In this document: positions 30,342 through 59,190 of the stretch, piece after piece
Layout: every line of letters begins with the position of its first letter
How positions within the stretch are numbered: position 1 is the first letter of the stretch
Assembly (NCBI GenBank): GCA_022813865.1
Contig: JALDZX010000002.1
Location: forward strand, 496,001 to 560,000
Origin: Xylographa opegraphella
Taxonomy: Eukaryota
Direction of reading: 5' to 3'
Length of the DNA stretch: 64,000 bases
The notes under the pieces: generated by a model
The model's input: the letters and a program-made list of their open reading frames with translations, nothing else
What the model was told of the DNA's origin: nothing
Databases searched by the model: none
Position numbers and translations under genes: made by a program

Positions 30342-33300
30342 TCATGCTTCATTTTCCAGAGCGGGGTTCCGTAGTTGCGAGTCATGTCGGCCGAATTCGA
30401 CAATACTCGCATCGATGCCGGTGTCTTCAATTTCGAGTGGTCTGACGGGAGGACGTCCAATTCTTGTTCTACCAGCCTTATAGGAGACCATGTATTCATA
30501 CACTTGCATCTGATCATTCAGCTCTCCCTGAAATGCCTCGGCAAATTTAGGAAAAAGCTTATCTCTAATATCTTGTGCCTTGCTGTCAAGTTCCACAGCT
30601 TCTTTTTGACGATGTTGTTCTTTAAGCATTTGGGCCAAGAAATACTGGGATCTTGCACTGTATTCCTCTGTGCATGGATTCTGTTCCAGGTTTGCGAGAG
30701 ACAAACGGAGCATTTTTCTGTCAGGAATGAGCGCGGACTTTACTTTGACAGCGATTGTAAGTACTCACTCGGCTTCCTCGTATTCACGTAACTTGTAATA
30801 AGTCACACCAAGAGCATAGTAGCTGTGCCTAGCCCGGAAAGAGAAAGTGCCAAATAAATTTGTACGTTCTTCAAGTATATCGAGATGCAGATCTTTGGCG
30901 GCTGTCAGATCTGCCGAATCTTCTGAAAGAAGTAGTATTATAGCTTTGAGGAATCTAAAATTTTGGGTTTGAGCCCCATGCCAACCGTTGTGTCTCTCGG
31001 CCAACTGTATGGCCTCGGTCATCATGTCCTTCGCTTCGTCAAACCTCTCTTGCGAGGCCCGCACAACGGAGAGGTTCACGTAGGCTTCAGCAAACATCAT
31101 GGGATTCTCCTTTTTATTAGTGTTCCGTTTCTTGATGGCCAAGGCGTGCTCGAGGTACTGTTCTGCCACTGCATAATCGGCGAATTCGAGAAGACCGCAG
31201 CCAAAGTCGTTCCATGCATTTGCATAAAGCAATTGCTGATCAGGGGTACCCCCTGGTGGCGGAGAATCAATGAATTGCTTCCGAATATTTAAGGTTTTAA
31301 TTAGTTCCTCAAGACCTGTATGGCGTCCACTGATACCATTTTCGAGCTCCATTACTCCCCACAGGCAGTGGGCTTGAGCTTGATCGTTCAAGTCCGGTTC
31401 GCTCATACCGTCAAGTATCTTTACAGCAAGTTTCGATGCCTCAATACCGTCCTTCTGGAAGTTGCGTTCCCAAAAGTAGTTGGCTTCATCCGATAGAAGA
31501 CTTGCAAGAACTGTGCTGACTCTGAGTGCGGGTTGGCTTTGCTGCAATACAGCCTGCAAGCTCAATACATGCGGTTGATATATCTCGTATCTATCCCAGT
31601 TTCGATTGTCTGGCGACATAACGCTAGACTGACGGGGAAAAGCCGTGCGTACAAGCATTACTGCTTGGTCAAAGATTTCTTGTCGCTTCAATATATCTTT
31701 AGAGAGACCAATGCGCAAGTTGAGTTGTAGGGATCGATGCAATGAAAGACTTGCATGTGGTGTCGATGTATCTCGTTGAACGAGCTGCCTTCTGCATAAA
31801 CTGGATCGGATACGCTCAAATCTACTATCATTGTTAAATCGTGCTCCCAGTTTATCATGCAGTTCTATAGCTTACAACCTTTGTTTCGTGAATTCAATAT
31901 CTGGGCTTGAACCAAGGCTCTGGACAAATAGCGATTCTGGAATAGAATCGGGGCTCAGCATTGACAGCACATAGAGAACGTCTGAGGCCTCTTCCCCATC
32001 TTTCCAAAGTTCATCGAGAGCAATACTCCAGACCATATCTAAGCTCTCAAAATACATTTGAGAAGACCAGGTTTTTCTGCTTGTCCAAATATCGTCTGTT
32101 TGTTGCGCTTTGAACTTGTCAAGCGCTTCAGGTAATGTGATCCGAGATGTGAATAAATACCCAGCAATATGGGCAATGGTTATCGGCAGTCCTCCGACCC
32201 TTTCTGAGATTTCAAGAGCCGCTTTATATTCTTCTGTTGTGTGGCGGTCCTTTTGTAACAAATCAAGGAAAAGAGCAGTTCCTTCTTCAGGACCCAGTGA
32301 TTGGATAGATATCTGTGATCGAATAACTTGTGCAAGATCTGCCATCTGACTAGTAACTACGATAGCACCGGCGCAATTTCTCGGCCAGTATGGTTGAATA
32401 GTATCCCATAGTTCAGTATTATCGAATATTAATAGCCAAGTCTTGTCTACTGAAAGCGTCAGTCCAAGGTAATAACGGAGATCGTTTACACAAACCGGTC
32501 GTTTCGAACCACTCTCTCACGAGTTCAATTTTACGACCTAAGCCCATCGATCCAGAACCCGTGATTCCTAGCTTCGATGCAATAGATGCATATCCAACAG
32601 CTAGCTCAGGTGCTCGTTGGGAACCCAACCAGAAGATACAATGATAGAATCGCCGATTTCGGTATGCGTACTCGAGAGCAATTTGAGTCTTTCCCATACC
32701 TCCCATTGCATGAATAAGGCATGATCTAGGCTCAGACTGTACTTCCTGTTGCTTTGGCGATAATCTTTTGTGAATTTGATCCAGCTCACTGGTACGGCCT
32801 CGAAAATACTGATTTTTACTGTAAGGAACATCAAAGACACCATTTGTTGGAATTGATGTTATGATATGTTGAGCATTTGGAAGTCGGTCCTCTAATTCTC
32901 CATGGATAGCGACTACAATCTCGTCGATGTCTGCTCGAGCTTCTTTCTCAAATGTTGTAATATTTGTCTCTATGCGTTGCTGAGTTTTCTGAAAATCTTT
33001 TCGTACACCCCACCATAAAACTTTTCCAAGAGTCACTGCAATCTATCAGCATTTCTATCATACTGTCTCACAGTAAGGACTGGGATATACAAGCCGCCGA
33101 CCGTTTATAGAACTTGATTGTAAATATGCAAAATTGAACATAATCTTCCACAATCTCCCTCGTCAGAGTTTGTAGCCTGCGGTTCCTGGGTAGAAGCTTG
33201 ATGTAACGGTTGACCCTTGTTGTAGTGAATGTGAGACCCTGAAGCATAGTTGTGATATCTTCAAGAGTGCGCCAAAATTCGCAAGCACACTAAACAGCAC

Positions 33301-33642
33301 CTCGTTCAGGCGTTGGTCACTTGAAGAGGCAATGGAAAGACCTACGATAACCACTGCTTGGATTGAACCCCAAACTATCCCCACAGGGTTTGCATCGGCC
33401 TGGATGAAGGTCGATATACTTTCTGTAAACAAGTTTAGCTGTTCGAAAGCCGGCCGCAACTTGTTGAGGCATCTCGTAACCAAGTCAGAGCCATGCCCAT
33501 CTTTCAAAGCGATAAGCTTTGCTTCAATCGTAGCATAGTCGAGCTCGTCAATAATACCACTATATTTGCTCCCATTGAGTTGACTTCTCTTTGTCTGCAA
33601 AGCGAGAGTCCATTCTTGTGCAACCTCTCGGGGCATGATCAT
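30342..33642 (-). CDS. Fungal NLR-like STAND protein: N-terminal helical domain + NB-ARC + TPR repeats, multi-exon
   Basis: N-terminus ...NPVGIVWGSIQAVV, then VPYSKNQYFRGR, P-loop HAMGGMGKTQIALEYAY, IFWL, WLLIFDN, IVVTSQ, VGGLPITIAHIAGY and TPR helices (YANAWNDFG...EHALAIK, AYVNLSVV...FDEA). Confidence 0.85.
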
Positions 33643-34116
33643 GTGAATATCTAGAGTTGACCAATGTTGCAAAACGTGACACCAAACACACACCGAATGA
33701 GACACGTTAGATTAGATCATAGTGCAAATGTACACCTCGGTGCAGAACAGATATATAGTGCAAAGAAGTAGGGCATAAGGGTATATGTGCCCGAGCTGAG
33801 CTGCTGGATATATGGTCGTACTCATTGGATAAGCAAGGTGCAGGACGGCAGGATGACATGCAGTGACACGACATCCCAGTAGCTGCATTATCAAAGAATA
33901 CGGTAGGCAAATGAATTGTAGTCGTTGCTAATTATGTAGCGCCGTAGCCTTGCATAGCTGGGAACTGTCAAGATTCTACCCTCGGCTCCAATTCTCGCTC
34001 GACTCCCCCTCTTTTGCTCGAGAAGGGCCAAGCCTTGCCATCTCCACAAGTCGATATGTGAAAGTCATTCGGTGAAGCATTGTACTCTTGAGAAGCTGTC
34101 ATTCGATATTTCAGTC

Positions 34117-35799
34117 ATGTATGTTGGGACTCCCGCCCATCTAAAAGCTAGGGCCGACTAAGATAAGGCACTAACTTGTTGTAGGCATCTCCATTCGCAC
34201 GAAACCCAGGTGGTGGAGCGACTTCGACAACTCGACACTGAGATAATCGAAATTTGCAAAGTTTCAGGGTCTTCGGGCCTGTCACTTGGAGTCCTTCACC
34301 ACGGAAATGTGATTTATACGGCGCATCATGGCTTCCGTAACATTGAGTCGAGAACTGCGCCTGATTCCGAGACACTGTACAGCATCAATTCTATGACTAA
34401 AGCATTGACGGCTGCGGCAATAGGGATACTGGTAGAAGATGGAAGGCTTCAGTGGGACACACCTGTGCACACAATTCTACCCTGCTTCGCAGAAGGTCAC
34501 GGTCCACTGCAGGAAGCACTCACCATCACGGATTTGTTGTCTCATCGCTCCGGCATAATATCTCCGGACACATTCTTTCTACAGGATAACAATACTCTGC
34601 TTCTAAACAAGCACGAAGCGATAAGAACCTTTAACTACGGGAAAGAGAAAGAAGGGTTCCGCGACTCGTTTCTTTACAGCAACTTTTCATATGCTGTAGC
34701 TGGACTCGTCATTGAGCATCTGTCGGGGCAAGAATATGGCACTTTTCTTCAGGAAAATTTCTTTGCGCCTCTCGGACTTCATAGGACTACCACAGAGGAC
34801 ATATCGAAGGATACGAACATTGGGAAGTCGTACTCTGTACTCGAAGACCGTTCGTTTTGGCCTGTTCCGGGACCTAAGGTTGGCACTGGTACCCTGATGG
34901 AGGGCGCCGCTGGGATTAAAAGCACTGTTAACGATTTACTTATTCTTTACAAGGCATTCATTGAAGCATGTAACGATCAAAGGAAGAAGAACACTACCTC
35001 TACGGATGGTTCTCCATTTCGGCAATGCAACACACTTGTTCTAGGCCATAACTTCCTTGGGGGCACGTACCTTCGAGAACAAAGTTACGGACTTGGATGG
35101 GTGCGATGCCAACTCCCCGGGCCTTTGGGTCGACAAGCAATCAATGCTAGATTGGAGATTGATCTACCCATCACCGGAGATGAGACACGATCCCTTTTCT
35201 GCTTATACCATCAAGGGCTAATGCCAGGTTCTTCGACGGTGGTATACTCCTTCCCAGAGACAGAAACCGCAGTCGTTGTCTTACAAAACGCGACTGCTTT
35301 GAATGACTGCCCAGATTGGGTAGGCCAATTACTGGTTCAAACTATTTTCAACTTCTCCCAAAAGAACGATTATCTTGACCTCGCCACGAGAAGCGCTAAG
35401 AAGTCCTTAGCACTTGTGCCGTCAATAGGATTAAAGCTAGACTCTGAGCGGATACCGAATACCAACTTTAGCTTACCGCTGAATGCCTACACCGGCCGTT
35501 ACTTCAGTCCCATCAAAAACTTCTTCATTGAAGTAAGCTTACATGGGAAAGAGTTGCAGCTCGCCTTTCAGGGTCTTGAATCCCAGACCCATTCGCTGCG
35601 CCATTACCACTATGACACATTTACGTGGCAGATGACACACAATGAAGCAGCCAAAAAAGCTCGCTTAATGGTCAACTATCCCGCCGAATATTTCTTACTC
35701 AGATTCGGGACGAAAGATCATGATAGCATTGATCGTCTTTACTGGATCATTGAAACCACACACCCTAACCCAGAAGTATTTCGGAAAGCAGATGATTGA
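34117..35799 (+). CDS. Beta-lactamase/penicillin-binding-protein-fold serine hydrolase (S12-like) with C-terminal DUF3471-like domain
   Basis: INSMTK (SxxK), DLLSHRSG, FLYSNFSY (YxN), YHQG, C-terminal LNAYTGRY...LRHYHYDTF. Start probably split AT|G by intron 34119-34184. Confidence 0.85.
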
Positions 35800-36760: not shown

Positions 36761-38588
36761 ATGGCCCCGCGTCAAGCAAACCGAAACGTCCAAAAAGTTG
36801 GGCGGCAATGCTCGGTACCGAAAGGCGAACGTAAGTTATTCACATCGTCTTGTGCTTTGACTGATCGTTGATAGAAGCACGGCCACAAGGTATCAAGAAA
36901 GAACGCCCACAATCTTCTCCTCGTAAAAGCCTACGCCTGCAACACCGACAGGAACGCACTGTATCCAAGGACACGAACATCGAACCCAAGCATCAGCTTC
37001 CCTCTGCAATTACCAACACTCCCAGCACAGAGGCATGTCCCTCTCCTCCTACTATGCTCTAAAGCTAAATCAAGTCAAGTTTCCACAGGCTCGAGGACAA
37101 GAACGAAAACGAAAACGACCGCAAGAACCCGAAGGTGCATCCAATCTCGCTCCATTCGAACCCCTTCGAAAGCAACGGCGGACGTCTCGTTCAAATGCTA
37201 CTACTAAGCACACACATAACCAGGGGGCAGTGAGGAGCATCAACAAAAAAAAGACCAATTCCATTGCGTATTGGAGCGAAGAGGGACGCTGGCCTAAGCA
37301 ATACTTCACCCAAGACGATCAGACTAAGAAAGATTTCGAAAATTACAATGGGATACTCTGGGTAGCAGAGATGGGATTGAATCACTTACTTGCGAGGAAG
37401 AGATCGTCGTCTTCTTTTCGTGGTAAACAATCGGAAACTGGCTCTGTCACACCAAGTTCAGCTAGCGATGAGAAGCCGAGGGAGGACAAACACACCCCTT
37501 ATAAGCGTCCAAGCTATGAGACTGTGCTTGCTACCAAAGGTAGCTTTATGGGGAAGTTCGATTTGGGTATTACAGATGCAAGCAAGAAACTCTGTCGAAC
37601 TTTACTTGAGGCAGAACAATCAGTCCCTCAAGATACACTGTTTCGTGACGATCTGTTCGACGAAACTTGCGAGAGCGTGCGAGCGAGAAATGAAGCTATG
37701 GTTGTCCGAGACATTTCCCCATTGATATGTCCATCTGCTCAAGTGCTGAGGATCTATGGCGCGACACATCTCAAGGCTTTAAACGAAAGTGTTAATGAAG
37801 GCTGGAATTGCGCCGAACCCTTTTACGGTCCTCGCCCACAACCCGATTATTCTATAGGGTTCGGACGGTCTGCGTTTATGGATGATCGACTCGAAAAGCT
37901 TAAGCCTTTCGTGGGGGAGGTTCCAGATACATTTACGTCCCATTTCATGGCTACTTGGCAGATGTACTTCCCGTTCCTAACGTGCGAAGTAAAGTGCGGC
38001 GCTGCAGCCCTCGATGTCGCCGATCGACAGAATGCTCACAGCATGACACTCGCAGTGAGGGGCGTTGTCGAACTGTTCAGGATGGTGAAGCGCGAAAAGG
38101 AACTTCATCGAGAGATCCTCGCCTTCTCAGTCTCGCACGATCACCGAACAGTTAGAATATATGGTCATTACCCTGTGATCGATGGAGAAAAGACAACTTT
38201 CTACCGCCATGCGATCCATACGTTCGACTTCACAGCACTAGATGGCAAGGAAAAGTGGACAGCATACAAATTCATGAAGAATGTTTACGATATATGGATG
38301 CCGACTCACCTGAAAAGAATTTGTTCAGTTATTGATGACTTGCCGCTGGATTTTAAGGTCTTACAGCAATTTGAGGCGGCGGAATCTGGACTTTCACAAG
38401 GTTTAGAGAGTCACCATCTCTCTGACCAAACAAGTCATAATACTGCGTCTTTGGACGAAGCTGACAGTCAACCAAGTCACGTTGGTTCGCGAGACGTTAC
38501 CCCTGATACTTCCCTGTCTCAAAGGATGGAGGGGGGCGAATTCAAAAAGCCGAGGAAAAGGGGTCGACCTGTAGAGTTACATCAGTAA
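36761..38588 (+). CDS. Fungal PD-(D/E)XK-like protein (DUF7924-type) with long low-complexity N-terminus
   Basis: RNEAMVVRDI, GPRPQPDYSIGF, YFPFLTCEVKCG...ADRQNAHSM, AFSVSHD...RIYGHY. 5' exons inferred. Confidence 0.7.
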
Positions 38589-39219: not shown

Positions 39220-40129
39220 TAATCTATGAAGTCTATGGGGGGGGGCTGGGGCCCAGCCACCTAGGATCACCTTGCTTCAACAATTCCCTGGGATATTCAT
39301 CCTTGTGCTAGAACCCTGCCTTTTTTTTTACTTGAACATGTATCATTGTCGCTGCTGAGATTAGGTTCGCTGTCGTTTTGCGAATATTGAACAGCCAGCA
39401 GAACAATTAAATTACAAACTGGTGACGACGATTGTAAAGACGAGATTAAGGGCGGCAGATTGAATCGAATGGCGGAGATGAATTCCTTTGGGAAACAAGG
39501 ACTTACATAGGCGTTGGTCAGGATCGCGAGACTACTGGGGAATTCTTCGGGTAGTGTCAATTAGGCCTTTGTATGTTAGCAAGCTTGTAAATTTTCATGC
39601 AAATGTTTTTAGACCCGAATTGGACACCAATTTTAATTTATCGTTTTAAAGCTATCGAGTTCCCTTGTAACATCCTTCGGCCACTATTCGATGATGTTAT
39701 TAAGAGTACAGGACACTCTGTCAGTTTATGCGAGGAATTTGCACCAGCCACGTTATCACTGAGATTATTTGCCCCTGTTGTAGTTGTAGGTGTCATTGTC
39801 TTGCGAATGTTAAACGAAAATCAGGGTTGCCTTCGTTACAGGATGCGGTATCTGAAGAACAAGGGGCGGCGTTGTTGCTAAGCCTCGATAACACACTGAC
39901 AATATTTACATGATTTATTCGCAGCAATTTGGAATAGCTCAGGAAGGAGTAATCACACGATCTTGCTGGGTTTCTTCTATTGCACGTCGTTACGTCGACT
40001 GATTTTCGACGTCTTACTGCATTTTTAGTATTTGCGCAGCGACGCGGTCACGTCCATCTCAAAACATACAGCCAAGGTAAAGCGTGACTTCTCGTTTGAG
40101 GCCAGCGAACATCGTCTTGCGGTGGGCTT

Positions 40130-41426
40130 TCAATACTTGTAGCACAGCAGCGACGTCTCCGTCGACATGATGTCTCCGACCTTTCGCTCCAAGCCGAGGC
40201 CGTACAGCCTCAGTGGATCTTCCAACGACACGGTCGTCGTATCTTTTAACAAACCCTCCTGCGGCTCCCGAGCGGCGCTATCATAATCTCGCAGCCGAGC
40301 AGCCGGCTCCCGGTGCTGCCACTTCCACCACAGCCTGTCGATCTGCGCGTGGTGCACGAAGAAAATCGGGTCTTTGAAAGAAAGCCTGTCAGTGAGAGTC
40401 ACCATCCGGAAGTAAGGCGGCAAAGGGCACGAACCGTTCGTCGACCACGGCGTCGGCATCTCGCCGCCGATGCCACGATGTATCCATCTGTGGGGGCCCA
40501 GCTCTAGGCCGCTGCGGAACTCGTGATATGTTCTTGCGCCGGCGATCAATCCCTCCACAATCGGGGCCGTGTAGTTTCTACCGTGCATGCCTTCGCGTGC
40601 GAAGTTCCGACGCAAGCAGTGAGGCGTGGGGTATTGGGGTGCCATGTGAGCGAGCGGTCCTCGTTCCACGCACTGCTCCGAAGAGCTCCCGTTGCCGCTG
40701 AACCCTAGCTCATCTGACCATATTGGCGAACTCTCCGGATCAGCCGCGTCCAGAGTCCAGTCCCAGTACCTATACATTTCAGCACAAATCCTTGCTTTGC
40801 TCGGCCGACTCGGCGCGGGAATGGTGTCTCACGCCAGGTAACCCTTGTATCCACACTCATTTCGCAAGGCGTTCTCGTACTGCTGGATGTAATAGCGGTG
40901 CCAAGGCAAAGAGACAGGCACGTTGTGTGCTTGATATCATAAGTTTTGAGTTTTGAGAGGAGGAGAGCCCGGACCTACTGGTGTTGAACATTTGCAAATG
41001 AGAATACACGAAGTCGTCGTATCGAGTGGTGTTGAGCCCCATGCGGGAAGGGCTGTTCGAGAGACACCGAACGGCAGCAATGTAGCTCCGTCTGGCTTCA
41101 AACGGCAGCATTCGCCACTCCTGGCGCAGGGCTGGGTTGCGACCTTGGTTGATCATCAGCTTTTCCCGGTCAGGACTGCCTGGAGTGGCTTCCGGAGAGG
41201 GCTCACAGTCGGTTTTACTCGCCTGGGAGGAGAGAGCGGCATTGATCGTGCTCACAAGCAGCACAAACAATATCGCTGCCGCAGTGCAAACGGCAACGTA
41301 AATCAGAACGCCTGGAGACCGCACATTCGAAGACCGGAGGGCTTTGGCTTCATAACCCTTCTTCAGGAGAAACTCGTAACCCGTGGAGGCCGGGTCCTCG
41401 TCCGAGAGGCTCTCTTCATCTTTCAT
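40130..41426 (-). CDS. Membrane-anchored tyrosinase (UstQ/PhomQ-like), 4 exons
   Basis: N-terminal TM helix, LRQEWRML...YIAAVRCL. Spliced CuA site H-LQMFNTT-H-NVPVSLPW-H-R, ECGY...YWDW. CuB site GPHRWIH...DPIFFVHHAQIDRLWWKWQ. Confidence 0.9.
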
Positions 41427-42429
41427 GGCGACCGGCAATAACGTGGCTTTGCGATGATATCAAAGTCGGGAAGCAAGAAGCGGAAAGAAATCGCTAGACA
41501 CACGGGGCAGATTGCTCTAATTGTTCCATCACAGAATAACAAAACGCTTTTGCACACAAATGCTCCATCATACCCTAGCCAAAATTTGGAACCATTGGAC
41601 TCGATAGTTGTCTGCGGATGTGCAGACGATAGGCCTGGCGCCTTCTACGAGAATACCGAGGAATGCATCGCATAGGTTGTTTTCCAAGCAGGTCGGAAAG
41701 GAGCACAGGTAACGGCATGGGCGATGGATAACGAGTCCGAAGTTCGGTATTCCTGAGGTAGGACAAGGCTTCGGATGGGTGGGTTATTTGCGATCAACCT
41801 TGGCAGAAAGTCACGTGAGTATGTTGTCAGCGACTGGCTCAAGACCACACTTGAACGCAGCCTTGATGCCTTTGGACCACAACGCTATTTTAGGTTGTTT
41901 GACTGCAGTTGAGGTGATTATGTCAAATCGATAGGGGTTCGCGCCATAGCCAGCAGTGCCTTTGCCGTTTAAAATGTCTTGAATGATTTATCGGGATCTT
42001 GTATGCATTGGAATACATATTTGAGTGGTTACTTAAGTACTTGCAAGACAATTCGCAACGTGATTGGATGTAAAGACTAGCGGAAACACTACTATGCTAC
42101 TCGTCTCTCTCGTAATATCGATACGCATTCCGATGCAATACGGGTGAGCAAGCAAGAATCAATGACCCATCATATTGTATGCAAGAGTAAAGTATGAGTT
42201 CATTCAATCGCATGGGAATGACTGTACTTTCCACAAGCTACACGAAATCCCATACTGAAAGAGCGAATGATACATTTTGCTGAGCCCCTTATCAACCTTT
42301 GCACATATCAGAAGCCAGGAGTCATTCTCAACACCTCTCCATACAGTCTCGCCCAGTGACTTGATAGTACTCGCAATCCTTCCATGGTCCTCCATTTCCT
42401 TTTCGAGGTCATGCTCGTGCTAGCTTCCC

Positions 42430-42957
42430 TCAAACGACTGGGCTGAGGACTACATACTGTTAGCTAGGAGATTCCTTACGCTTTTTGCCTGGAGGTCCAT
42501 CCTTACCTGGCTCTTCAACCACACGCTTGGAATTAGGGGACTCAACATCGCGTTTGTAGTATGGGGATTCAACCTCACGCTTGTAGTTTGGAGACTCCAC
42601 ATCGCGCTTGTAATATGGGGACTCAACCTCACGCTTGTAGTTTGGAGACTCCGCATCGCGCTTGTAGTATGGGGATTCAACCTCACGCTTGTAGTTTGGA
42701 GACTCCACATCGCGCTTGTAGTACGGGGACTCGACCTCACGCTTGTAGTTAGGGGACTCAACATCGCGTTTGTAGTTAGGGGACTCGACATCGCGTTTGT
42801 AGTTAGGGGACTCGACATCGCGTTTGTAGTAGGGGGACTCCACGTCACGCTTGTAGTACGGGGACTCGACCTCACGCTTTTCGTCAAGGGATGGCGTGGG
42901 GAGGCCCAGGACCGTGACTGCGCCAACAAGGGCGGTGAAGAAAACGGAGTAACGCAT
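42430..42957 (-). CDS. Kex2-processed repeat protein / dikaritin RiPP precursor (signal peptide + 13 x [DE]-[VA]-ESP-[YN]-[YS]-KR)
   Basis: ATG at 42957, MRYSVFFTALVGAVTVLG signal peptide, LDEKR, then 13 nine-residue KR-terminated repeats. Probable 57-nt intron 42450-42506 (GTAAGG...GCTAAC...TAG) gives the end VVEEPVLSPVV*. Unspliced, it stops at 42460. Confidence 0.9.
42523..42873 (-). repeat. 27-bp coding tandem repeat x13 with a 54-bp higher-order unit
   Basis: Units: EVESPYYKR, DVESPYYKR, 3x DVESPNYKR, then alternating EVESPYYKR / D(V/A)ESPNYKR, last DVESPNSKR. Confidence 0.95.
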
Positions 42958-43635: not shown

Positions 43636-44392
43636 ATGGGGTCCTCAACGCCGTTTACACCATGCCGAATAAGCACAGCTTTCTTCTTTTGCTTTGTCGG
43701 CATGATGTTTGTCTTTCAAAGTCAGATAAGAGATGCCGTCAGATCAATGCACCACGAAACCTGCGAAAGGACAGATTATATTCACGATCAGCGATACGGC
43801 CCGAGGACCTTCCCAGAGGTGTCTCCTCTGGAGAGTCTTGGACCCGAGGGGGACGAAGCCTGGGATAGACTTACCACCAGCAGTGGTGGCTTCCTCTGGC
43901 TACAGTACAACGAGACATACGATATCCCCTGGGGGATTTCTATGTTTCATGGCACACATTGCCTGCAGATGCTGCGTCAAGAGTTTCAATCACAGCTTGG
44001 AATTAGTAATGGGGGAGGCCATCACCACCAAAAGCGCAATATTGCCACGAAGCATGACGGGCATAGCAGTGGCCCGGACATTGTGCACCTAGGGCATTGC
44101 CTAGCATACGTTGTCCAGGTAAGTCACCGAGCAAACACCTAGCATTGCTGATCAAGACCAGATGCTCCAATGTACCGGAGACAACACAATCGAACGCCCA
44201 TGGATCAAATTAGATGAGCTCACGGGCGATCTCATTGACCACGGCGTTGACGGTGCAGGTATACAACACCAGTGCCGCGACGTCAATCACATCTGGGCAG
44301 CGGCGGAAGCGACGGAGAGAAAGGCCGCCCCAATGTGGGACCACAAGCCTGGAGATACAGTTGAAATGGTCTTTGGGGATCTTAGAGTGTAG
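43636..44392 (+). CDS. DUF3328 / UstYa-family oxidase #1 (2 exons)
   Basis: N-terminal TM helix, DEAWDRL, SMFHGTHCLQMLR and HLGHCLAYVVQ|MLQCTGDNTIE (two HxxHC motifs), HQCRD. Intron 44119-44161. Confidence 0.9.
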
Positions 44393-44803: not shown

Positions 44804-46455
44804 ATGGCATCCGACGGAAATGGCAGTCGAGGCTTCCACCAGCAGCGACATAATTCTGGTGAAGAAGAAGTTCTTCTTCTCCAGGCAGATGCAGATGCCG
44901 AATCTCTGGCTTCAGATACACCGTCGACCCTCATCCCGGAGACCCTAGTCTCCACCAAATGGATCACTTTACTCCTTGTCGGCATTCTTGCTCTTTTCTT
45001 TGAGACGGGCAACGCCATGCGCGCGGCAGCACTCATCGCCAGCTATGAGGATATTATTTGCCACAGCCGCGCCGAGATCCGTGCTACGCCCGTGATGCAG
45101 TGCTCGAAGAACCATGAAGTCGAAAGGGAATTAGCGTTGATCTTGGGTGTGTCGCAGTTTCTCGAATGCCTACCGATACTGCTACTGTCGGGCTTTTATG
45201 GTAGCATGGCAGACAAATATGGCAGGCGACCGATCCTTCAACTTGGCTATCTCGGCATGATCCTAAGCTCGACGTGGGTAACCGGTGTCGCCTGGCTGGC
45301 TCCCGCTGTCCCGCTCCGCCTTGTCTGGCTGAGCCCTATCTTCACCGTCGTTGGTGGTGGGCCTGGCGTATCGATCTCCATTCTCATGACAAGTGCAGCC
45401 GACGTCGTTCTGCCGAGTGAAAGGGTCACCATTTACTCTTACATCCATGGCACCGCTCTGGTCGCGGTCATGCTGGGGTCTTTGCTCAGCTCTTTAATGA
45501 TGACATCGCTGGGGAATTTATCACCGCTATTGACGGGACTGGCGCTGATGTGTCTAGCGTTAGCATCGGGTTTCTTCCTGCCCAGTCAAAGAAATACTAC
45601 CAAGTCCTTCACTACGGCATCCGATAGTGATTTTTATCTGAAGCCCTCGGACGATTCGGATGCATCTTCGCCAGTGCAGGCACAGGGAGGTCGAAACTTT
45701 TCGGTGCGAGCACTGAGCCAGTCTTTCCAGAACCTCTGGAGAATCAAAGGCGTCATACCATTGCTGATCGCAGGCTTTGTGTCTATGCTGGGTCAACAGG
45801 TACAGATCTTGGTTCTCCAGTATGTGCCGAATAGGTTTGACGTAAGCATTGCCAAGGTAAGTATTTCCAATATCGCTTCGTGCAATTCTCCATTAACATA
45901 CCCCGTTCTTACTCTAGGCAAATATGTTCAACATTCTGATCTCAGGGGTCAATCTCCTCATATTGTTTGCACTGCTACCTTTAGCGGGTGTACTAATCTC
46001 GCGCCACCTTGGCTATACCACCTTCGTCAAAGACCTAGTACTTGCTCATGCCAGCAATCTCTTGTTTCTTACAGGAGCACTCGTCTTGAGTATGGCGCCA
46101 GTGCTGCCCATAGCATTTATCGGTAGGCTACGACCCAAGCGTATCCTCTTGCCTTGACTTTACCGTGCTCATGAATACAGGTTTTATTATATTTGGCGCA
46201 GGCATTGGCCTAAGTAGTCTTCTACGGTCCATCTTCGTCGAGCTCTTCCCACCAGAGCGCGCGGCATACGCGACCACGGTGATTTCTGCTGTAAAGAGTG
46301 TGGGGGGGAGCTTCTCAGGGCCCATGTACTCCTCCGCACTTGCACTAAGTCTAGGCTTGGAAGGCTTTCTCCAGGGCCTCCCATTCCTAGTCTCTGCTGC
46401 TAGTTTTGCGATCGTGGAGCTCGTGTTGATCACTGTGAGATTCACATATAAATAA
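44804..46455 (+). CDS. MFS transporter (UstT-like), 3 exons
   Basis: Multiple TM helices, MFS motif A GSMADKYGRRPIL, FTVVGGG, ADVVLPSERV, second half RSIFVELFPPE...GPMYS. Confidence 0.88.
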
Positions 46456-46759: not shown

Positions 46760-49474
46760 TCAAGTCAAAGATGGCTTGCCGGGGAGACATTGTGCCGGAC
46801 AAAATTGCTGCGCGATTCCACTCAATTCAACGACCTCAGCCAGTGGAACCACGAAGCCAATCGATAACCTGCCAAAAAGTCCACAGGCGATTGCAAGATA
46901 CGAGATTTCGTCATCATTTGACCACTTGAGAACGACCGCCAGGAAGATTATCCGGACAGCGATAAGGAGGGGGTAGACTAGCGTTCTGAATGCAAGTATC
47001 AGCTCATTCGAAAAGCTGCGATATGCGAGGAACGCCAGGGTACTTGCCTGTTGACCAGAAAGTCCGGTACGCGCACATTTTCATAGCTCTCGAGGATCAT
47101 CTTAGCCGTACTCACACAGCGCTTGCAGGCCTGGCTGCGTTGCTGGTCCGGGGCCTTGGAAAAGGTACTCGGTGGGTACAGCCAGCGGCTGTCCAGCGCC
47201 AGCAGCACCTCGTAGTACTGCAAGTGTAGCTGAAGGAATAGGCGGCGTTCGTGGCCGCGCTCGCGTGCCGGGATACCGCGGCTCCACAGGTGGGGGGGGA
47301 GCTGCGAAACCCACGCGTCTACTTGCTGGTGTAGGAACTCCGTCGCTGTATCTAGCGTGGCTAATGGTGTTGAGACCACGTTTGGACTGTAAAGAGCCTT
47401 TCGGGTCAGCGAGCATAGCTTGGCGTACTGGACTTGCAGCAACAAGTAATCCGTGCGGTCGGCGGCGCGTGAGTTGCTTGCGCTCAGGCACTCCGGAACG
47501 TCGAACTCGATTCTTCCTTCATCGAGGGCCTTGTAAGTCAATCAATCAATCAATCGAAGACCCGAATTGATACAACGGGGTCAAACATACGAATGGCAAG
47601 CCCCATCGCTGACAGAAAGGTTGTGCGAGCGTGTATAAATACCACAACGTTCGCTTGGCGTAAGTTTTCTCCTCGGGGCACAACGAGAGAGCGTCGACTC
47701 CAGCTTTCTGAAATAAACGAAGGCTATAGGCGCAGGAAAGTGCGTTTGTTATTAGTATGGAACAACACCGGAAAAGCGAAAGTTGTTGCATATATAGACT
47801 GTATTAATTAATTACCTGCTGTGTAAATTTGACCCTGAATTGAACACATACCACGACGATTAGTGACTGTGAGATGGTAAGCTGAACTCCGCAGTTAACC
47901 GCAGAACATGTTACTCACTTGAAGTTTCAGAAGCGTATCTTTAGCAAGGAGGACGCCGGTCAACGCAACAAGCGATAGACGAAAGAACGATTCAGAGTTG
48001 TTTTTCTGCCCTTGCGTTTCGTTACGCAAATGGAAGCTAATGGCTATAGCCGAATATACAAGGGCTTTTTTCACGGACGAGTTCGACTTGTTTCTCAATA
48101 CAGATTGAAGCATCTCCTTGAGCCTATCCAGACTTATAAAATTTCTGACCCTAAGCAACAGTCACCTACTGCTCTTTCGCTTATTTTATATATATATTTA
48201 CCCTGTCAGGTCGTTATAGCATTCTGTGATTCCACCAGTAAGTTATTACTCGTATCAAAGATTTTGGTTGAATCTTACCATTAAGGAGCTCATCAAGAAT
48301 AATCGGACTGTACAATTGAAGAGTAGAAGTTTCTAACTCTGTCATATCACAGTCAACGAGGTCGTATTGAGTTGGTTCGAGTCCTTGAAAAGAAGCCGAT
48401 GCCATGCCGTCCGTTGATAGAACGCTTGCTTCGCATTGGGCCCAAGAAAACGCCGATCTGATAGAATGATAAACCGTGCTTTCAAGTACTATTCACCGAC
48501 TTAGCTGATTCGTTCCGAAGCGTGGAAGCTCGATAAGTACGAACCGGTATCAAGTGAAGATGGTATCTATCTCTCTCAAATTCGCTTAACAACAGAGTTT
48601 CATGCTGTCAAATGGAAATACGTACCTGCAACCAGCCACGATCCGAGCTCGACTCCGAATCGACCTCTGGCCCATGCTGCAAAACCTCATCTTGTGATGA
48701 GGGGAAGTGGGACTGCGTTAGAGGTGTATGTAGTCCCTCGGACGATGCATCGAGAAGATCAGTTGAGAAGAGACTAGTAAGAGAATTTCTCGGCAAAGAG
48801 ATGGCATCCTCACCGAAGCCATTAAAGACAACGGTCGGGGCAAGGTTGTTTGAAATTTGGTTCTCGTGAGACCTGATCAGGCTCATAGGACTGCTTGGTA
48901 ATAAATCCATATCGATGTCGGCTAAACCAGGGCTTTGAAGGTCGAAAGTATCCCATAATAAACTGGTTATCGAGTTATCGAGGTCGAACTGATGACTCTT
49001 ATCTGAGAGAAGAGAAGTTTGCAAGGAGGGTAATTCTTTGCGAGTTGATGGTTGTTCAGTATTTATCGAATTCCTCTGCCGCTCGGAGGACAATTTTCGA
49101 GAAGATCTCCCCGAGTCGAAGCTTGAGCGAGCAAAGCGAGCTTGTTGATATATACAATCCTTTTTCAGTCTCTGCCGAGTCGATATCAAAGTCGTATCTC
49201 ATCGACGTGTGGGGGATTAACGTACGTAGCATGGATCGCATGGCCTTGCTCCGTCGCCTATAGTGCAAACGTTAGCTCAATGCTGGTATGATTGCATAGT
49301 CGACATCAACTCACATCGCACCTTCCTCGACTTGCAAGACTCGCAAGCGCCACGACGTCGAGTTAATATCTGTTTCGAGCCATCGGTGCCAGGGGAACAG
49401 GAGCCTGTTGCCGGCAAGAAATCCTTCGGCTGCGACCTGGTATGAAAGGAGGGAGAGTGTGAAACGGAGTCCAT
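46760..49474 (-). CDS. Zn(II)2Cys6 transcription factor with fungal-specific TF domain, multi-exon
   Basis: Splicing gives RRRGACESCKSRKVRC|DGARPCDPCY|RLKKDCIY (C-x2-C-x6-C-x5-C-x2-C-x6-C). Downstream AKRTLWYLY...WGLP and QVDAWVSQLP...LHLQYY. Stop TGA at 46760-46762. Internal exons approximate. Confidence 0.8.
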
Positions 49475-50106
49475 ATCAAGAATAGGGTAAGGCACAACAA
49501 CCATTCGAAGGTGAAGTGATATACTCGTCATCTTCTGACAGACGTCGTTGCCACGACTGTTGTTATGATTACAAAATAAGCGAGAGTAGCATATATGCAG
49601 AACAAGTATGGCATTTTACCATGTTCGACCGTTCTCGTAAGCGGGGTGTTTAGCATCAGAGATCGGGCCGACAGAGCGACTTTATAATGCTGATAGAATA
49701 CTAAAAGTATGAACAAATAACAGCAGTCATGGTATGCAGTACAGGTGACATAACAACAAAGATCAGGCCTATTCAATGAATTGATTGCGATTATAGTAAG
49801 ACAAAGCCAAGGCTTGAGTGAATGTTTAAATTCTACTCTCGATTGAAAATAAAGATGGTTATAAAGAGTACCTTGATCGAGTATCCGAACAATATAGAGA
49901 ACCGATGATTATTGTTTCGAAACTCGGAAACGCACATTAAACACCCGCTGCGGCCTGTTCCGCCCACTAAAAATAAGCGTTGAATTTAAATTATCCGATG
50001 AAAGGTACGATGCGTACTGAAGCGCAGTGGTCATTCTAGCAGAATATATGGGTAAACAAGTGTGTTGTATTAGCTATGAACAACTACGAGACTATATGCT
50101 CGCGCA

Positions 50107-50519: not shown

Positions 50520-51067
50520 GGTTGAAATCGTCCACCTAAAGCTTACGTTCTAGGCGTGCTTGTGTGGTGAGTTGATGAGCCGTAACATGGAGTAAGGTGT
50601 AATCGATTGCAACTGTTTAATCTTTCGTGTGATGGCGCTAGAGCAATGTTTTCCCGGCTTACCTCCCTCCTCCCTGGAATGATCCCGCCACGATCCTTCT
50701 CGGAATTCAATACTGTTCTTGCTTCCTGTCATGCATATTATGCCTATCATGCCTAGGAGAAGTAGGTAGCAGAGAATTTTTCTTATCTCGCTGTCGTGTT
50801 GCTGGCAATATGCATCCCCATTCTGCTGTCGTCATTCCCATACGGAGTGCGGATCCCGACGCGGTGCATGCGCACTAGCGACGTTTTTGTTCGTAAAGTA
50901 TTGTTTGCCACTTCCTCTGCAACCGTGAGTGCTAAAGCTGATCTACGGGGCAAAACAGTGTCTTTGCATCCTACGGACCCACGGAACACCTGCCAGCAGC
51001 GCCTTGAATTCCTGATCTCGAAAGGGAAAGGAATCTGCTCCTCAGGTCTGTAGCAGTCATTGTTATC

Positions 51068-54000
51068 ATGGCCACGCATAGAAGTCTCGCCTGCGAACCA
51101 GCTGCTGATGATAGCTTTGGCCCTGTGGTCGACGCCTGTGCCCGCTCATTCGACTTCACCTTGCTCTTTGAGCAAAGTATTCTCTCTGCCGCTCCTACCA
51201 CCGTCTTCCTGCTTCTTTCCTTATGGCGAATATGGAAGCTCCGCATCTCTAGCCATAAGACAAAGCATAGCTGGATGTCAATTGTCAAACCGATTGCGGC
51301 TCTGGCGTTGATCGTCTGCCAAATTACTCTTCTAGCCTTATACACCAGGTCAAACACAATCAAAACTAGGTTCTCTATATCAACCACAGTATTGAGTCTT
51401 TCCGCTGCTATGGCTATTTTGCCACTTTCATACTTGGAGCACACTCGATCTGTGCGACCATCGACACTTCTAACCTCTTACCTTGCTTTCTCAATCATGC
51501 TTGAAGTTCCTCAGATTCGCACGATTTACCTCATACCTGGGCAGCTGGATTTAGCGGCTGCTTTCTCTACGGTGATGGTCGTCAAAGCCGCCCTGCTCCT
51601 GTTTGAGTCATGGAATAAAAGAGTTCTCCTAGAGAGCCAATACTGTTCCCTGGCTACAGAGGCTACAAGTGGTATCTTCAGCCGCAGCCTTTTCCTTTGG
51701 ATGAACAGCCTCTTCTTGAAAGGTTTCGCCAGGGTAATCTCGTTCGATGATCTTGGTCCTGTTGACAGCAAGTTAGATTCAGCCAGACTTCATCAAGTCT
51801 TTTGCGCTGAGTGGGAGTTACAGGATCATAATGTTAAATGGCCCCTTCTGCGTACCTCATGGAGGGCTTTGCGCTGGTCAATACTATCGCCTGTACCTCC
51901 CCGCTTGTGCTATGGAGGGTTTCTTTTCGCACAGCCGTTTCTCATTAATAGGGCCACCGCCTACTTGAGCTCTTCAAGTGGCACTATCGATGATGACATT
52001 GGTTATGGGCTCATCGCTGCTGCGGGATTTGTGTATCTAGGGATAGCAGTAAGAATGGGGATTTATAGCAGCCTCCTCAAAGCTGAAAGGCTAATGTTCA
52101 TAATCTTAGGTTTCGACGGCCTTGTATAAGCATCAACTCTACCGCCATATCACAATAGTCAGAGGCTCACTCGTATCGGTTATCTACTCGCAAAGTCTGT
52201 CTATGAAGCGTCTCCCGGACGATCCATCGGCTGCCGTAACTCTTATGAGCACTGACGTAGACCGAATCTGCCAAAGCTTGGTGTGTTTACATGATACTTG
52301 GTCGCGCCCATTGGAGCTGATCGTGGGGGTCAGTCTTCTAACCTTGCAGATAGGCTGGGTGTCCGTTGTACCACTCATTGTTGTGCTCTTTAGCGCCTTG
52401 GTTGACTCCAAGGTCACTTTGTCAATTGGAGGGAGAGTTGCTCTCTGGACTGACGCAGTTCAGCAACGAATCTCGCTGACGGCAAATGTGCTGTCGTCAA
52501 TGAAAAGTGTAAAGATGTTGGGGCTCGTGAGACCTATGCACGTGATGCTGCAGAATGAAAGGTTACGTGAGCTCAGACTGCAGTCAAAGTTCCGTTGGTC
52601 GACCCTCTGGTTGAACACATTAGGTAAGACCCACTTCCATTCAACATGAAAATATATTTGTCCACATTATATGTCGCAAGTTTGCCCAGAACTCAAAGAG
52701 CCAGCCATAAGACTACTTGAGAACACATGTTCTCAAAACACGTCAAAGACATTATATCTCTTATAAATTTGCTCATCGATGGCTCTCGAATGATTGTATT
52801 AAACTATATTTGAGTTCAGAGATTTAACTAGTTGCTACAGGGAACGTACCTACTGCGCTCACAGCCGCCGTCACTTTCATGACCTATGCGATCAAGGCAC
52901 ACCTACAAGGCTCCACTAACCTTGACGCTTCTCAAGCATTCACAAGCCTGGCGCTCATTTCGCTTGTTACAACTCCTGCTAGCGAACTTCTGACTGCATT
53001 CCCATTCACAGCTGCATGCCTTGGATGTCTGAGAAGAATCCAGGAGTACCTAATGCAACCGAGGTATACCGATCGGAGAGTTTTCACTACAGGAATGGAT
53101 GGATCGTTTGCAGAGAAAGCTAATCGTGTTTCCAACTCGGATACAATCATTGCACGTATATTTCACATAAGCATTCCGGCACTCGTCGGCTCAGGTTCTC
53201 TCATACAGGATTTGGACGTAACGATCCACCGCAATACCCTCACCATGATACTAGGCCCAAGCGGATCAGGAAAGTCGACGCTCTTGAAAGCCATTCTCGG
53301 GGAAGTCAATTACAGTGGATCAATCTCAATCGCTACAACTCGAATCGCCTACTGTCCTCAGAGCCCGTGGTTGTTCACAGGTACTGTCCAGCAGAACATA
53401 TGTGGCTTGGGAGTGGAACGAATCGACAACATCTGGTACCAGTCGGTTCTTTACGCATCTGCACTACATGATGATCTTCTAACCCTGCCGCTTGGTGATC
53501 AGACAAGAATCGAGGGACAAGCTGCCAGTTTGAGCGGTGGTCAGAAGCAACGTATCGCGCTTGCCCGGGCCCTTTACCAGCAACCACGACTTCTTTTGCT
53601 TGACGATATTCTTAGCACTCTGGATCTTCAGACAGAGACACAAATCATAAAAAACTTACTTGATCCGAATGGCCTCCTACGAAACTCCAAAACCGCAATC
53701 GTGCTAGTGACGCACACTAGACGCTACGAACCGTTGGCAGATAATGTTATTATATTCGACGAATCTGGAAATTCGACTCAGTGCTCCCATATATCACCAT
53801 TGGAGGATAGAATCGTCAGCATGATTTCAGAAAAGCCAGAAACCCTGGTACTTCCAACTGATGCAGCAACTTCCAAACAGGACCTGTGCAGTAATAAAGT
53901 AGTCCAAGAGGATCATTCGAGCGCGGTTTCGCTTCAGCTTGATGGTGACACTGCCGATTACTTTTACTACTTCAGGACTATGAAGTGGCAACAAGTATTG

Positions 54001-55686
54001 TTTTTCTTTCTCTTGGTAGCTATTCAGACTGTCTGCTACTATATGTCTCAGGTTGTGTTACAGTGGTGGACAGCAGATCACGGCTTGGAGGAAACCAAGT
54101 GGATGTCGATTTATATCATCTTGGCCGTTGGAAACGCTGTATTCTATGGCTGCATCGTGTGGGCTATGTTCCTCAACATCGTGCCGGAGTCTGCTGCCAA
54201 ACTCCATAAAGTATTGCTAGATACGGTCATGGACGCTCCCTATTCATTTCTTGCAAAAACCGATGCCGGGATTATCCTCAATAGATTTAGCCAGGATATG
54301 ACACTGATCGAGTCGCAATTGCCGACAGGGATAATGTGTACAACTATCTATCTTTTTTGGACAATAGGATCGCTGGCCCTGATATCCACAGGTTCGGTTT
54401 GGATGGCTCTGACGATCCCGGCCGTTTTTATTGCGGTTTTCTTCCTACAGCGGGTTTACCTTCGTACGTCTCGTCGACTTCGTCTAATCGAGCTTGAATT
54501 AAGGAGCCCGACGTACTCACACTTTATGGAGACATTGAAAGGACTGCTGTGTATTCGAACGCTCGACTGGGAAAAGCAGTTCACTAATGCAATGATCGCA
54601 AAACTCGACGCTTCTCAAGTTCCATTCTATTTACTATATTGTGCACAGAGATGGCTACAACTCGTGCTGGACTTAATCGTTGCCGCTCTCGCCATCGTGG
54701 TCATGACGTTAGCTGTGAAGTTGCGTAGTTCCACTGACCCAGGATCTCTTGGACTTTCGCTCAATAACATCTTGAGCTTTAACGAGACGCTGTCTCTTCT
54801 TCTTCAATTCTGGACACAGCTGGAAGTCTCCCTAGGAGCTATCACACGAACCAGAGAATTCTCCAAGGAGGTGCCAAGAGAATCAAATCCACCTTTTCCT
54901 AGCCAGCCCTCTCCGGAATGGCCAGATCGCGGCGGTATTGAAATACGCAATCTTAAGGTCCAGTACACTGAAGCGAAGGTTGCTTTGAGCAATATCAATA
55001 TGTCGATCCGACCAGGAGAAAAGATTGCACTTTGCGGACGAGCTGGAAGTGGAAAGACTTCACTGCTTTCAGCAATCTTGCGTCTGCTGGAACCCTCGCA
55101 CGGCTGTATATTGATCGATGGCATAGATATCAGCTCCGTTTCCCATGAAACGGTCCGTGGCCGCCTACTGACTATCCCGCAGGATCCATTTCTACTTCAA
55201 CGAAACTCTCGCTTCAATTTGGATCCCCTGTCGCACTACAGCGATGCACAAGTTGTCGCCGTTCTGTCCAAGGTCTCCATATGGCCGTTACTTGAGAAGC
55301 GAGGAGGCTTGGACGCCAGCATAAGCTCCGATCATCTGTCACACGGTCAGAAACAGCTCTTTAGTCTCGCTCGAGCTATTCTACGCAAGGATGTCACAGA
55401 GATTGGTGGTGAGAAAGAAAGTAGAGGTAGAGTGCTGCTACTCGATGGAGCAACGAGTAGCGTCGACGCCGATACTCACGCTCTCATGCAGCGTATCGTC
55501 AAAGACGAATTTCCTACGCACACGATGCTAATCGTAGAACACCGACTGGATACAATTCTAGACTGTGATCGCGTTGCAGTACTCGATGCCGGTAGGCTTG
55601 TTGATTTTGACAGTCCTGCGACGCTACTTTCAAGAGATTCGGCATTCTCCGCGCTATATAACGCTCGTGAACGCGAGGCATTATGA
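51068..55686 (+). CDS. ABCC/MRP-type ABC transporter (TMD0-TMD1-NBD1-TMD2-NBD2), 3 exons
   Basis: DDSFGP...FDFTLLFEQSIL N-terminus, LMSTDVDRI. NBD1 GPSGSGKST, LSGGQKQRIALARA, LLLDD. ILNRFSQDM. NBD2 GRAGSGKTS, LSHGQKQL, LLLDGATSSVD. Confidence 0.92.
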
Positions 55687-58077: not shown

Positions 58078-59190
58078 ATGTCCTTCTCCCCCAAGTACAC
58101 TCGTCTCGGCCCCAGCGTCATTCCACAGTCTTGTCTAGAGTCACACAACTCCGCTGTTGAATCAGATGGCTTTTTGGAGAAGACGAGTCCAGGCATGAAG
58201 GACCAGCCCTCCTGGCCTAAAAAGATGGCATTTACACTTACTCAAACCTCTCTCAACTTGGTGTGGACGCTTCTGCTCCTACTGACGACCTTTCTTGCTC
58301 TCCTCTCGAAGGAGTACCGAGAACCATGCGTGGAATGGCACGATACCGATATAGGTTAGCAACCTTTTACAAGAAGAATCGCCAGAGGAACCATCAGCTG
58401 ATGCATATCACCAAGAACCCGCGAGGCGCCACATAGAGCGAATACCCGTAAAGTTCACGAGCGGTCTATACTGGAATGAGACGACGGGCGATACTACTTA
58501 CAGAACCTGGAACGAAGGTGAGCCGGTATTCGTGGGCCCGAGAACGCCAGAGCTAGATGCGGCTTGGGACGACATCTCATTACGTATGCATCAATCTTTC
58601 ACAAGGAGCCTCGCACGTTTACTGATGTTTGTGGAAGCGCTGGACCTCTACGTGACAGAGGAAGAGGCCATTAGTATATCCGATATCCCTCAGGGCATGT
58701 ATCAGGACCCAGAAACCGGCAAATATATGGTAGTGTACGGTTTTTGTTCCCATCTGCTGAGCTGCCGTTAGCTGACATCCTTTCCCCTCAGTGTAGAAGC
58801 GATTCACAGCCTTCATTGTCTGGTAATGTACCTAGAATTCTAATTGTTTCTCTTGCTGACAAGGACAACAAGAATATGCTCCGTAAACGCATCTATCTCC
58901 ACGATTATCCTGAACTCGATTCTCGAAACCTTCCGAACCACGTCGGTAAGTCATTGATGCCCTCGATTCAGCGATGGCCCCTTGAGCCGGGCTGATGACA
59001 TCAAGACCATTGCATTGAAGCACTGCGTCAGAACCTGATGTGTACCGCGGACATGACACCCGCACCAATTTTCTACTCGTCAGCCGTCGATAAGGTCCAA
59101 CCAAACTTCGAGATCACGCATTCATGCCGCAATCTCCGGCCGCTGTTGAAGTGGGCAAGAACGCGTAGTGTCCATCAGTCGTACAGCTGA
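58078..59190 (+). CDS. DUF3328 / UstYa-family oxidase #2 (about 6 exons)
   Basis: TM helix, FVGPRTPELDAAWDD, VEAIHSLHCL|NMLRK, NHV|DHCIEALRQNLMCTADMTP, HSCRN (two HxxHC motifs). Stop TGA 59188-59190. Confidence 0.88.

Follow-up and report, generated by a model that had tools for sequence, protein, structure and literature searches.

A thirteen-unit peptide precursor between a tyrosinase and a DUF3328 oxidase in Xylographa opegraphella: a predicted dikaritin locus

The DNA analyzed in this study, a stretch of 64 kb from Xylographa opegraphella that is referred to here as the window, contains a short minus-strand gene for a repetitive peptide precursor. This gene is directly flanked by genes for a tyrosinase and for a DUF3328 oxidase (UstYa1), and the gene for an MFS transporter comes next after UstYa1 (Table 1). 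A total of 43 open reading frames of the window were scanned against Pfam, a scan in which short exons could be missed.

Table 1. Precursor gene and neighbouring genes, with positions in the window.
Feature	Position	Strand	Basis
Precursor exon 1, with hydrophobic signal-like N-terminus, the 13 KR-flanked units and the first part of the tail	42507..42957	-	translation; hydropathy
Repeat array, 13 x 27-nt units (D/E)(V/A)ESP(Y/N)(Y/S)KR	42523..42873	-	translation; Tandem Repeats Finder
Last unit DVESPNS, Ser replacing terminal Tyr (TCC at 42531-42529)	42523..42549	-	translation; X1 contig
Precursor intron, 57 nt, GT-AG	42450..42506	-	joint in X3 and X4 RNA contigs
Precursor exon 2 including stop codon (protein of 156 aa)	42430..42449	-	spliced model
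Tyrosinase, 352-aa model with four introns; membrane segment at the N-terminus, six His at copper-site positions	40130..41426	-	PF00264, E 2.3e-17
UstYa1, DUF3328 oxidase, 237 aa, HGTHC and HLGHC, intron 44119-44161, divergent from precursor	43636..44392	+	PF11807, E 2e-9
MFS transporter, probable exporter	44804..46455	+	PF07690, E 4.7e-12
Probable Zn2Cys6 transcription factor	47002..49615	-	PF00172, E 0.0067, below curated cut-off
ABC transporter with TMD0	51008..55683	+	PF24357, PF00664, PF00005
Ytp1-like membrane protein, between ABC transporter and UstYa2	56360-57157	-	PF10355, below cut-off
UstYa2, second DUF3328 gene, HSLHC and HVDHC	58078..59190	+	PF11807, E 1.4e-14; intron models enumerated

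The precursor reading frame starts with an ATG at 42957 and yields thirteen heptapeptides when cut at KR. EVESPYY occurs five times (units 1, 6, 8, 10 and 12) and DVESPYY once (unit 2), DVESPNY was found five times (units 3, 4, 5, 7 and 11) and DAESPNY once (unit 9), and unit 13 is DVESPNS. These are exactly the six YY, six NY and one NS units counted between KR pairs in an earlier note on this DNA. The C-terminal Tyr, described there as invariant, holds for twelve of the thirteen units, where codon 7 is TAC, and fails in unit 13, where TCC encodes Ser. A DNA contig of run X1 (39900-42583) covers this TCC with no other letters, a cover that is not independent because X1 may be the window's own source. 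Glu3, Ser4, Pro5 and the Lys and Arg are constant in all thirteen units while their codons vary synonymously, with four different codons used for Pro. Position 2 is Val in twelve units and Ala in unit 9, and the variable core residue (Y/N) sits between Pro5 and Tyr7, with Pro standing two residues before the terminal Tyr position in 13/13 units. The unit pattern has 13 matches within the window against none in 20 shuffles, and the array is not due to chance. The first 18 residues of the precursor reach a peak 9-residue hydropathy of 2.5, the signal segment being judged by hydropathy alone. A Pfam CTD match on the precursor fell below the cut-off and was dismissed as a repeat artefact.

The precursor intron is removed in RNA contigs X3 and X4, which come from wood-decay metatranscriptomes of two studies, and is retained in the DNA runs X1 and X2. 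The spliced protein ends in VVEEPVLSPVV with its stop codon at 42430-42432; the unspliced reading of 165 aa is excluded by the RNA joints, and the gene end at 42430 given in the earlier note is right only with the intron removed. The UstYa1 intron is spliced in both X3 and X4, and introns 1 and 4 of the tyrosinase in X3 only. Much of the MFS gene had no RNA cover, and such gaps were not counted as evidence. The RNA contigs carry most of the listed differences of DNA run X2, whose organism (organism B) is about 1.6% different from the window over the listed stretch, and the RNA therefore shows expression in close relatives and not in the window's strain. The precursor gene is real, and it is transcribed and spliced in these relatives.

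The order of the units was found to follow a dimer. Tandem Repeats Finder gave 88% matches at a period of 54 as against 81% at a period of 27, and in units 6-13 the YY and N-type units alternate as a 54-nt dimer, with units 7 and 11 identical. Over the array, the YY/N alternation is non-significant (runs test, p 0.12), and 6:6 is the most probable split of twelve units (binomial probability 0.23). The best fit for the last 102 repeat bases of X3 and X4 is shifted by three units, and at least 13 sites differ when they are set against the window's own terminal repeats, as compared with 6 in 264 in the 3' flank. The X2 DNA contig shows 66 differences, of which at least 40 among those listed lie up to 42380 and about 20 are inferred for the last 111 repeat bases. 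Repeat-spanning contigs can be misjoined, and both an NS-last and a YY-last order fit the end of the relatives' array; the repeat order nevertheless differs between the window and its relatives and is not conserved. The earlier note had listed the equal number of the two variants as a feature of the precursor; selection for this equality was discarded on the binomial and runs tests, the dimer periodicity and the differing terminal order of the relatives. Position 1 does covary with position 6, as Glu starts five of the six YY units and none of the seven N units (Fisher p 0.005), although this is also expected from dimer duplication because the units are not independent.

Contig depths were left out of the gene ranking. 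A 45-nt piece of X1 at about twofold depth has two copies in the array as assembled, in agreement with the number of repeats there. At 42624-42850, within the array, contig depths added up to 925 in X2 against about 198 in the flanks, and 326 against about 160 in X1, a weak hint that the array of organism B is longer or more varied.

Both HxxHC motifs of UstYa1 are intact, and the spliced protein is identical over 200/200 aligned residues to X. opegraphella MMC26_000442 (P0011). Relatives of UstYa1 were found in X. pallens (99% identity), Loxospora ochrophaea (79%) and Botrytis hyacinthi (65%). A His-rich loop lies between the two motifs (44014-44036, plus strand), with H129-H131 invariant or nearly so in ten aligned sequences, and the loop might handle copper. 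The UstYa alignment matched none of the solved structures with which it was compared, and the AlphaFold model of UstYa1 exon 1 was set aside at a pLDDT of 44. UstYa2 is 24% identical to UstYa1 and lies 15 kb from the precursor. Neither a methyltransferase nor a Kex2 gene was found among the 43 reading frames scanned with Pfam, and next to the precursor that scan matched no enzyme of the methyltransferase, P450, FMO or PLP type.

Several further genes were observed to the left of the tyrosinase. An S41-family peptidase with a CPAF-like PDZ domain (24680-27174, plus strand) is located 15 kb off with unrelated genes between; S41-family peptidases are typical of dikaritin clusters (PMC6514808), and this one could be the trimming enzyme. 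A beta-lactamase-family hydrolase with DUF3471 (34162-35796, plus strand), 6.6 kb from the precursor, is another possible trimming peptidase. Between this hydrolase and the tyrosinase lies an intron-free DUF7924 gene (36927-38585, plus strand, E 7.6e-110), where the cluster may have its left border. The remaining two genes encode a fungal NLR-like protein with NB-ARC and TPR repeats (30345-33711, minus strand), whose N-terminal exon has no Pfam match, and an FAD-linked oxidase with a berberine-bridge domain (21055-22691, minus strand).

The tyrosinase has its best matches in Botrytis proteins at 56-57% identity (20 matches among 427 candidates), and the Botrytis relatives of UstYa1 are 63-65% identical to it. 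The corresponding genes were found close together by accession: tyrosinase TGO32564, KEP TGO32565 and UstYa TGO32567 in B. hyacinthi; tyrosinase TGO45330, KEP TGO45332 and UstYa TGO45333 in B. narcissicola; and UstYa TGO07053, KEP TGO07055 and tyrosinase TGO07056 in B. tulipae. The order was read from consecutive accession numbers and the KEP rows of Table S2 of PMC7329392, not from DNA, and on this reading the grouping occurs in all three Botrytis species that the protein lists share with the KEP table. UstYa KAM0304123 and tyrosinase KAM0304125 of a B. cinerea assembly flank one further gene, and another locus (L001) has a 64% identical UstYa followed by an MFS-like reading frame judged from translation alone. 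Since the order recurs by accession in Botrytis, we regard tyrosinase-precursor-UstYa as a conserved unit. The Botrytis precursors of this cassette are already catalogued as KEPs (PMC7329392), TGO32565.1 and TGO45332.1 forming KEP type 362 together with the Scytalidium protein RFU25772.1 (Table S2 of that paper). In T. atroroseus and A. ellipticus, none of the catalogued KEPs is next to the tyrosinase relative by accession (0/13 and 0/14 rows), which speaks against a wider spread of the cassette. UstYa1 had ten matches in all, and the cassette enzymes have close relatives in Botrytis and in two lichen genera; this patchy spread may reflect transfer or loss.

Searches with the precursor itself gave no homologue. 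None of 6138 candidates of 90-289 aa was reported by phmmer at E 0.001, in a search whose positive control, the signal with five units, was reported at E 7.5e-38. No match to the unit pattern was confirmed among 138 in metagenome contigs, and SP(Y/N)YKR was absent from the best 150 of 246 matches among 1.84 billion representatives. Three matches with repeated P-x-YKR or ESP-x-Y were by inspection unrelated low-complexity repeats, and the top match to the precursor in the ESM Atlas (0.87) serves as a lead only. The Botrytis KEPs were not matched by the precursor in sequence searches, and their cores therefore probably differ from those of the window, both for KEP type 362 and for B. tulipae TGO07055.1. 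In full-text literature, a scope that leaves out most subscription journals, the strings ESPYY, ESPNY, SPYYKR and SPNYKR gave no paper on fungal peptides by title and no literature on this Xylographa cluster was found; the same core strings are absent from the searched supplementary files of PMC7329392 and PMC12048977. Within the sources searched, the S-P-(Y/N)-Y core is thus new, and the precursor is likely a further member of the known dikaritin peptide family whose product is undescribed.

The assignment to this family draws on the neighbours. The precursor is set between a tyrosinase and a DUF3328/UstYa oxidase that are followed by an MFS transporter, which argues for a dikaritin RiPP precursor. 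An N-terminal signal (by hydropathy) precedes repeated cores with dibasic Kex2 flanks, a DUF3328 gene with two HxxHC motifs (UstYa1) is adjacent, and in relatives the precursor and UstYa1 (X3 and X4) and the tyrosinase (X3) are transcribed and spliced. Taken together, the gene content makes it very probable that the locus is a dikaritin cluster, a fungal RiPP type. The earlier note had proposed a multi-core precursor with Kex2/Kex1-type processing and the C-terminal Tyr as the likely donor, a proposal that gains support from the flanking tyrosinase and DUF3328 genes, the splicing in relatives and the Botrytis arrangement.

The ustiloxin and phomopsin systems (UstA/PhomA, UstQ/PhomQ, UstYa/Yb) resemble the present locus in having a signal with KR-flanked repeats, a tyrosinase, DUF3328 proteins, a transporter and a nearby Zn2Cys6 gene (PMC6514808). 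Ustiloxins A and B come from the UstA of U. virens, in which YVIG cores occur five times and YAIG cores three times, and as in the window its two cores differ at the middle ring residue, Ala or Val between Tyr and Ile (PMC4740483). Two cores in one precursor, highlighted in the earlier note, were thus already known from UstA and also from GigA. On the other hand, ustiloxin and phomopsin have an N-terminal donor Tyr and an Ile acceptor, whereas the Tyr is C-terminal here and none of the thirteen units contains Ile. Of the features of this subtype, the tyrosinase is present and the Tyr-X-Ile core absent, and no N-methyltransferase was found in the 43-ORF scan; the window tyrosinase shares no more than 30-32% identity with a protein automatically named UstQ.

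The asperipin-2a system (AprA/AprY) likewise has a small cluster and short repeats, its core FYYTGY has Tyr as the last residue, and its product contains ethers from Tyr oxygen to beta-carbon (PMC6514808). Its repeats of 8 aa (PMC7329392) with a FYYTGY core place the Tyr directly before the dibasic site. In contrast, asperipin-2a is bicyclic with aromatic acceptors and its cluster has one DUF3328 protein, a reductase and no tyrosinase, whereas the candidate acceptor here is Pro and the tyrosinase is a conserved neighbour; with its different core and adjacent tyrosinase the locus does not belong to this subtype.

The middle residue of OF4949, a compound made by Talaromyces rugulosus (synonymous with Penicillium rugulosum), is derived from Asn. 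A tyrosinase of this species (P0181) is 51% identical to that of the window; no link to the OF4949 pathway is shown by this, as no T. rugulosus protein is among the ten UstYa1 matches. OF4949, a minimal RiPP, is like the proposed ring a tripeptide in which the oxygen of a C-terminal Tyr is joined to the residue two upstream (PMC10929621), and citing papers describe it as recently found to be a RiPP with DUF3328 catalysis (PMC13703928, PMC13185096). Its acceptor is an aryl carbon of Tyr, whereas the candidate here is Pro, and the Tyr-X-Tyr core of that subtype is absent, Pro occupying this position in every unit. The layout called reversed in the earlier note is therefore reversed relative to ustiloxin and phomopsin, while the asperipin-2a core and the OF4949-type link already have a C-terminal Tyr.

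Epichloecyclins (GigA/GigB) also derive from imperfect repeats that give several congeners with a conserved Tyr near the C-terminus, GigA yielding five congeners from four repeats and a GigA-like precursor including a Tyr-less repeat variant (PMC10540207). They differ from the present case in their 27-aa repeats, seven-residue ring, proposed C-N link and Lys methylation, and in a cluster described in that account without a tyrosinase (PMC10540207). KEP type 362 and TGO07055.1, from the computational catalogue of Umemura 2020, occupy by accession order the place of the precursor here, between relatives of the window tyrosinase and UstYa1, and no product of theirs is described in the literature consulted. 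Outside the fungi, plant cyclopeptide alkaloids (burpitides) have four-residue cores in which the phenol of a C-terminal Tyr is joined to the beta-carbon two upstream, often of Pro, as in the proposed ring (PMC11253845); their copper enzymes carry four His (PMC12435403, PMC11253845). They are made by plant BURP-domain cyclases without Kex2 or DUF3328, and the likeness is a functional analogy only.

By analogy with these systems, the 156-aa precursor would enter the ER, where Kex2 would cut after each KR and Kex1 would strip the basic residues, giving heptapeptides that end in Tyr; release of such units by Kex2 and Kex1 is established from known pathways (PMC9769878, PMC4740483). The membrane-anchored tyrosinase would then hydroxylate the terminal Tyr, possibly to DOPA, and UstYa1, a predicted dicopper DUF3328 protein, perhaps with UstYa2, would couple the beta-carbon of Pro5 to the oxygen of the phenol or catechol. 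The resulting ring would span three residues, Pro-X-Tyr, and enclose X (Tyr or Asn); it would be 13-membered if closed via the new meta oxygen and 14-membered if closed via the para oxygen. The acidic N-terminal residues would serve as a recognition spacer and be trimmed to leave (E)(S)P-X-Y products for export by the MFS transporter. Two congener series would result, and the NS unit would be unable to cyclise. The mass difference of about 49.02 Da given in the earlier note for Tyr and Asn residues agrees with the computed 49.0204 Da. Should the YY series also be oxidised at its inner Tyr, the pair would by arithmetic be separated by 65.015 (extra O) or 47.005 (second ring) besides 49.020. The calculated [M+H]+ values, with X as Tyr and as Asn, are 527.214 and 478.193 for S-P-X-Y less 2H, 543.209 and 494.188 for S-P-X-Y less 2H with one O added, 456.177 and 407.156 for P-X-Y so modified, and 672.251 and 623.231 for E-S-P-X-Y so modified.

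This ether, between the beta-carbon of Pro and the oxygen of Tyr or DOPA, is proposed tentatively, at a probability we put a little short of even. It is favoured because Glu3, Ser4 and Pro5 are constant despite codon changes and the sole core residue to vary is the one that separates Pro5 from Tyr7, which parallels the variable residue inside the ustiloxin ring; the conservation of the Pro was assessed within the array of this lineage. DUF3328 proteins are membrane-anchored dicopper oxidases that act on C(sp3)-H bonds in the organelle lumen (PMC12435403), and a tyrosinase together with UstYa/Yb builds the ustiloxin ring (PMC6514808). In plant cyclopeptide alkaloids Pro is a usual acceptor two residues upstream of the C-terminal Tyr oxygen, and meta-linked forms exist (PMC11253845). 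Against this ring, the literature consulted describes no Tyr-O-Pro ring in a characterised fungal dikaritin, and the role given to the tyrosinase is extrapolated, as the known examples with a C-terminal Tyr (asperipin-2a and epichloecyclin) need no tyrosinase.

The sole Pro-Tyr link found for a fungal RiPP in the literature consulted is a C-N bond to an N-terminal Pro, in epichloecyclin, from preliminary NMR (PMC10540207), and this suggests a different closure in which the trimmed N-terminal amine of Ser or Pro would attack the terminal Tyr, either as a tyrosinase-made quinone or as a ring activated by DUF3328. The epichloecyclin closure is proposed to be an amination at the Tyr meta carbon by residue 1, which unpublished NMR confirms for a Pro at the first position (PMC10540207), and a 7-mer that lost two dipeptides would become P-X-Y, with Pro at its N-terminus. 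However, STE13-type enzymes take XA or XP dipeptides (PMC9769878) and only one of the thirteen units starts with XA, and the epichloecyclin cluster as described has no tyrosinase and forms a ring of seven residues (PMC10540207). We consider C-N closure unlikely, at roughly one chance in five.

The terminal Tyr may instead be joined in a larger ring to Val2, Glu3 or Ser4, or the YY core may carry two rings, with the second DUF3328 enzyme acting on the middle residue, and we give these arrangements together the same low probability as C-N closure. Val, found in twelve of the units, shares with the Ile of ustiloxin a tertiary C-H at the beta position, yet position 2 tolerates Ala in unit 9. Bicyclic Tyr ethers are known from asperipin-2a and selanine A (PMC6514808, PMC11253845), and the window does hold a second DUF3328 gene, UstYa2, although at its distance from the precursor membership in the cluster is only putative. 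The tracking of Y/N at position 6 by E/D at position 1 could mean that the N-terminus is kept in the product, an argument that is weakened by the dimer duplication noted above.

It is more improbable still that the peptides are secreted in linear or merely catechol-modified form, or that a single variant is cyclised, with the oxidases serving another substrate. Many KEPs do yield linear peptides (PMC9769878), and DUF3328 enzymes also hydroxylate and halogenate non-RiPP substrates (PMC12435403). Nevertheless, in Botrytis as in the window the precursor is directly enclosed by the tyrosinase and DUF3328 genes, the 43 scanned reading frames gave no match to an NRPS or PKS family, and DUF3328 neighbours are almost never seen for pheromone-type KEPs in the text consulted (PMC7329392). 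An alpha-type mating pheromone precursor was rejected, as only one of the thirteen units starts with XA, a DUF3328 gene is adjacent and the precursor has no match to the Pfam MF_alpha family.

Two variants, their equal number and a C-terminal Tyr are none of them new in themselves. A broader reading combines the Pro-X-Tyr ring with the shared cassette: the tyrosinase-KEP-UstYa cassette of Xylographa-type lichen fungi and Botrytis would define a new dikaritin subtype with a ring from C-terminal DOPA oxygen to Pro beta-carbon, a DUF3328-made fungal counterpart of the plant meta-bridged cyclopeptide alkaloids, and would include an expressed, classical multi-core RiPP precursor of a lichen fungus. 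As a whole this is speculative, and we hold it to be rather doubtful. If the ether of Tyr or DOPA oxygen to Pro is true, unrelated dicopper enzymes would have led fungi and plants to one and the same scaffold, and the tyrosinase and DUF3328 logic of ustiloxin would run in the opposite way along the peptide. The locus offers a compact and testable predicted dikaritin cluster, with exact masses to expect and with expression evidence from relatives in wood-decay samples. Lichen RiPPs have been predicted in large numbers, and a survey whose genome table includes eight Xylographa rows describes, in the text consulted, two conserved clans, both of them without repeated cores (PMC12048977). The Xylographa locus supplies a repeated-core precursor in a lichen-forming fungus, and the culturable Botrytis relatives provide a practical route to the chemistry of the cassette.
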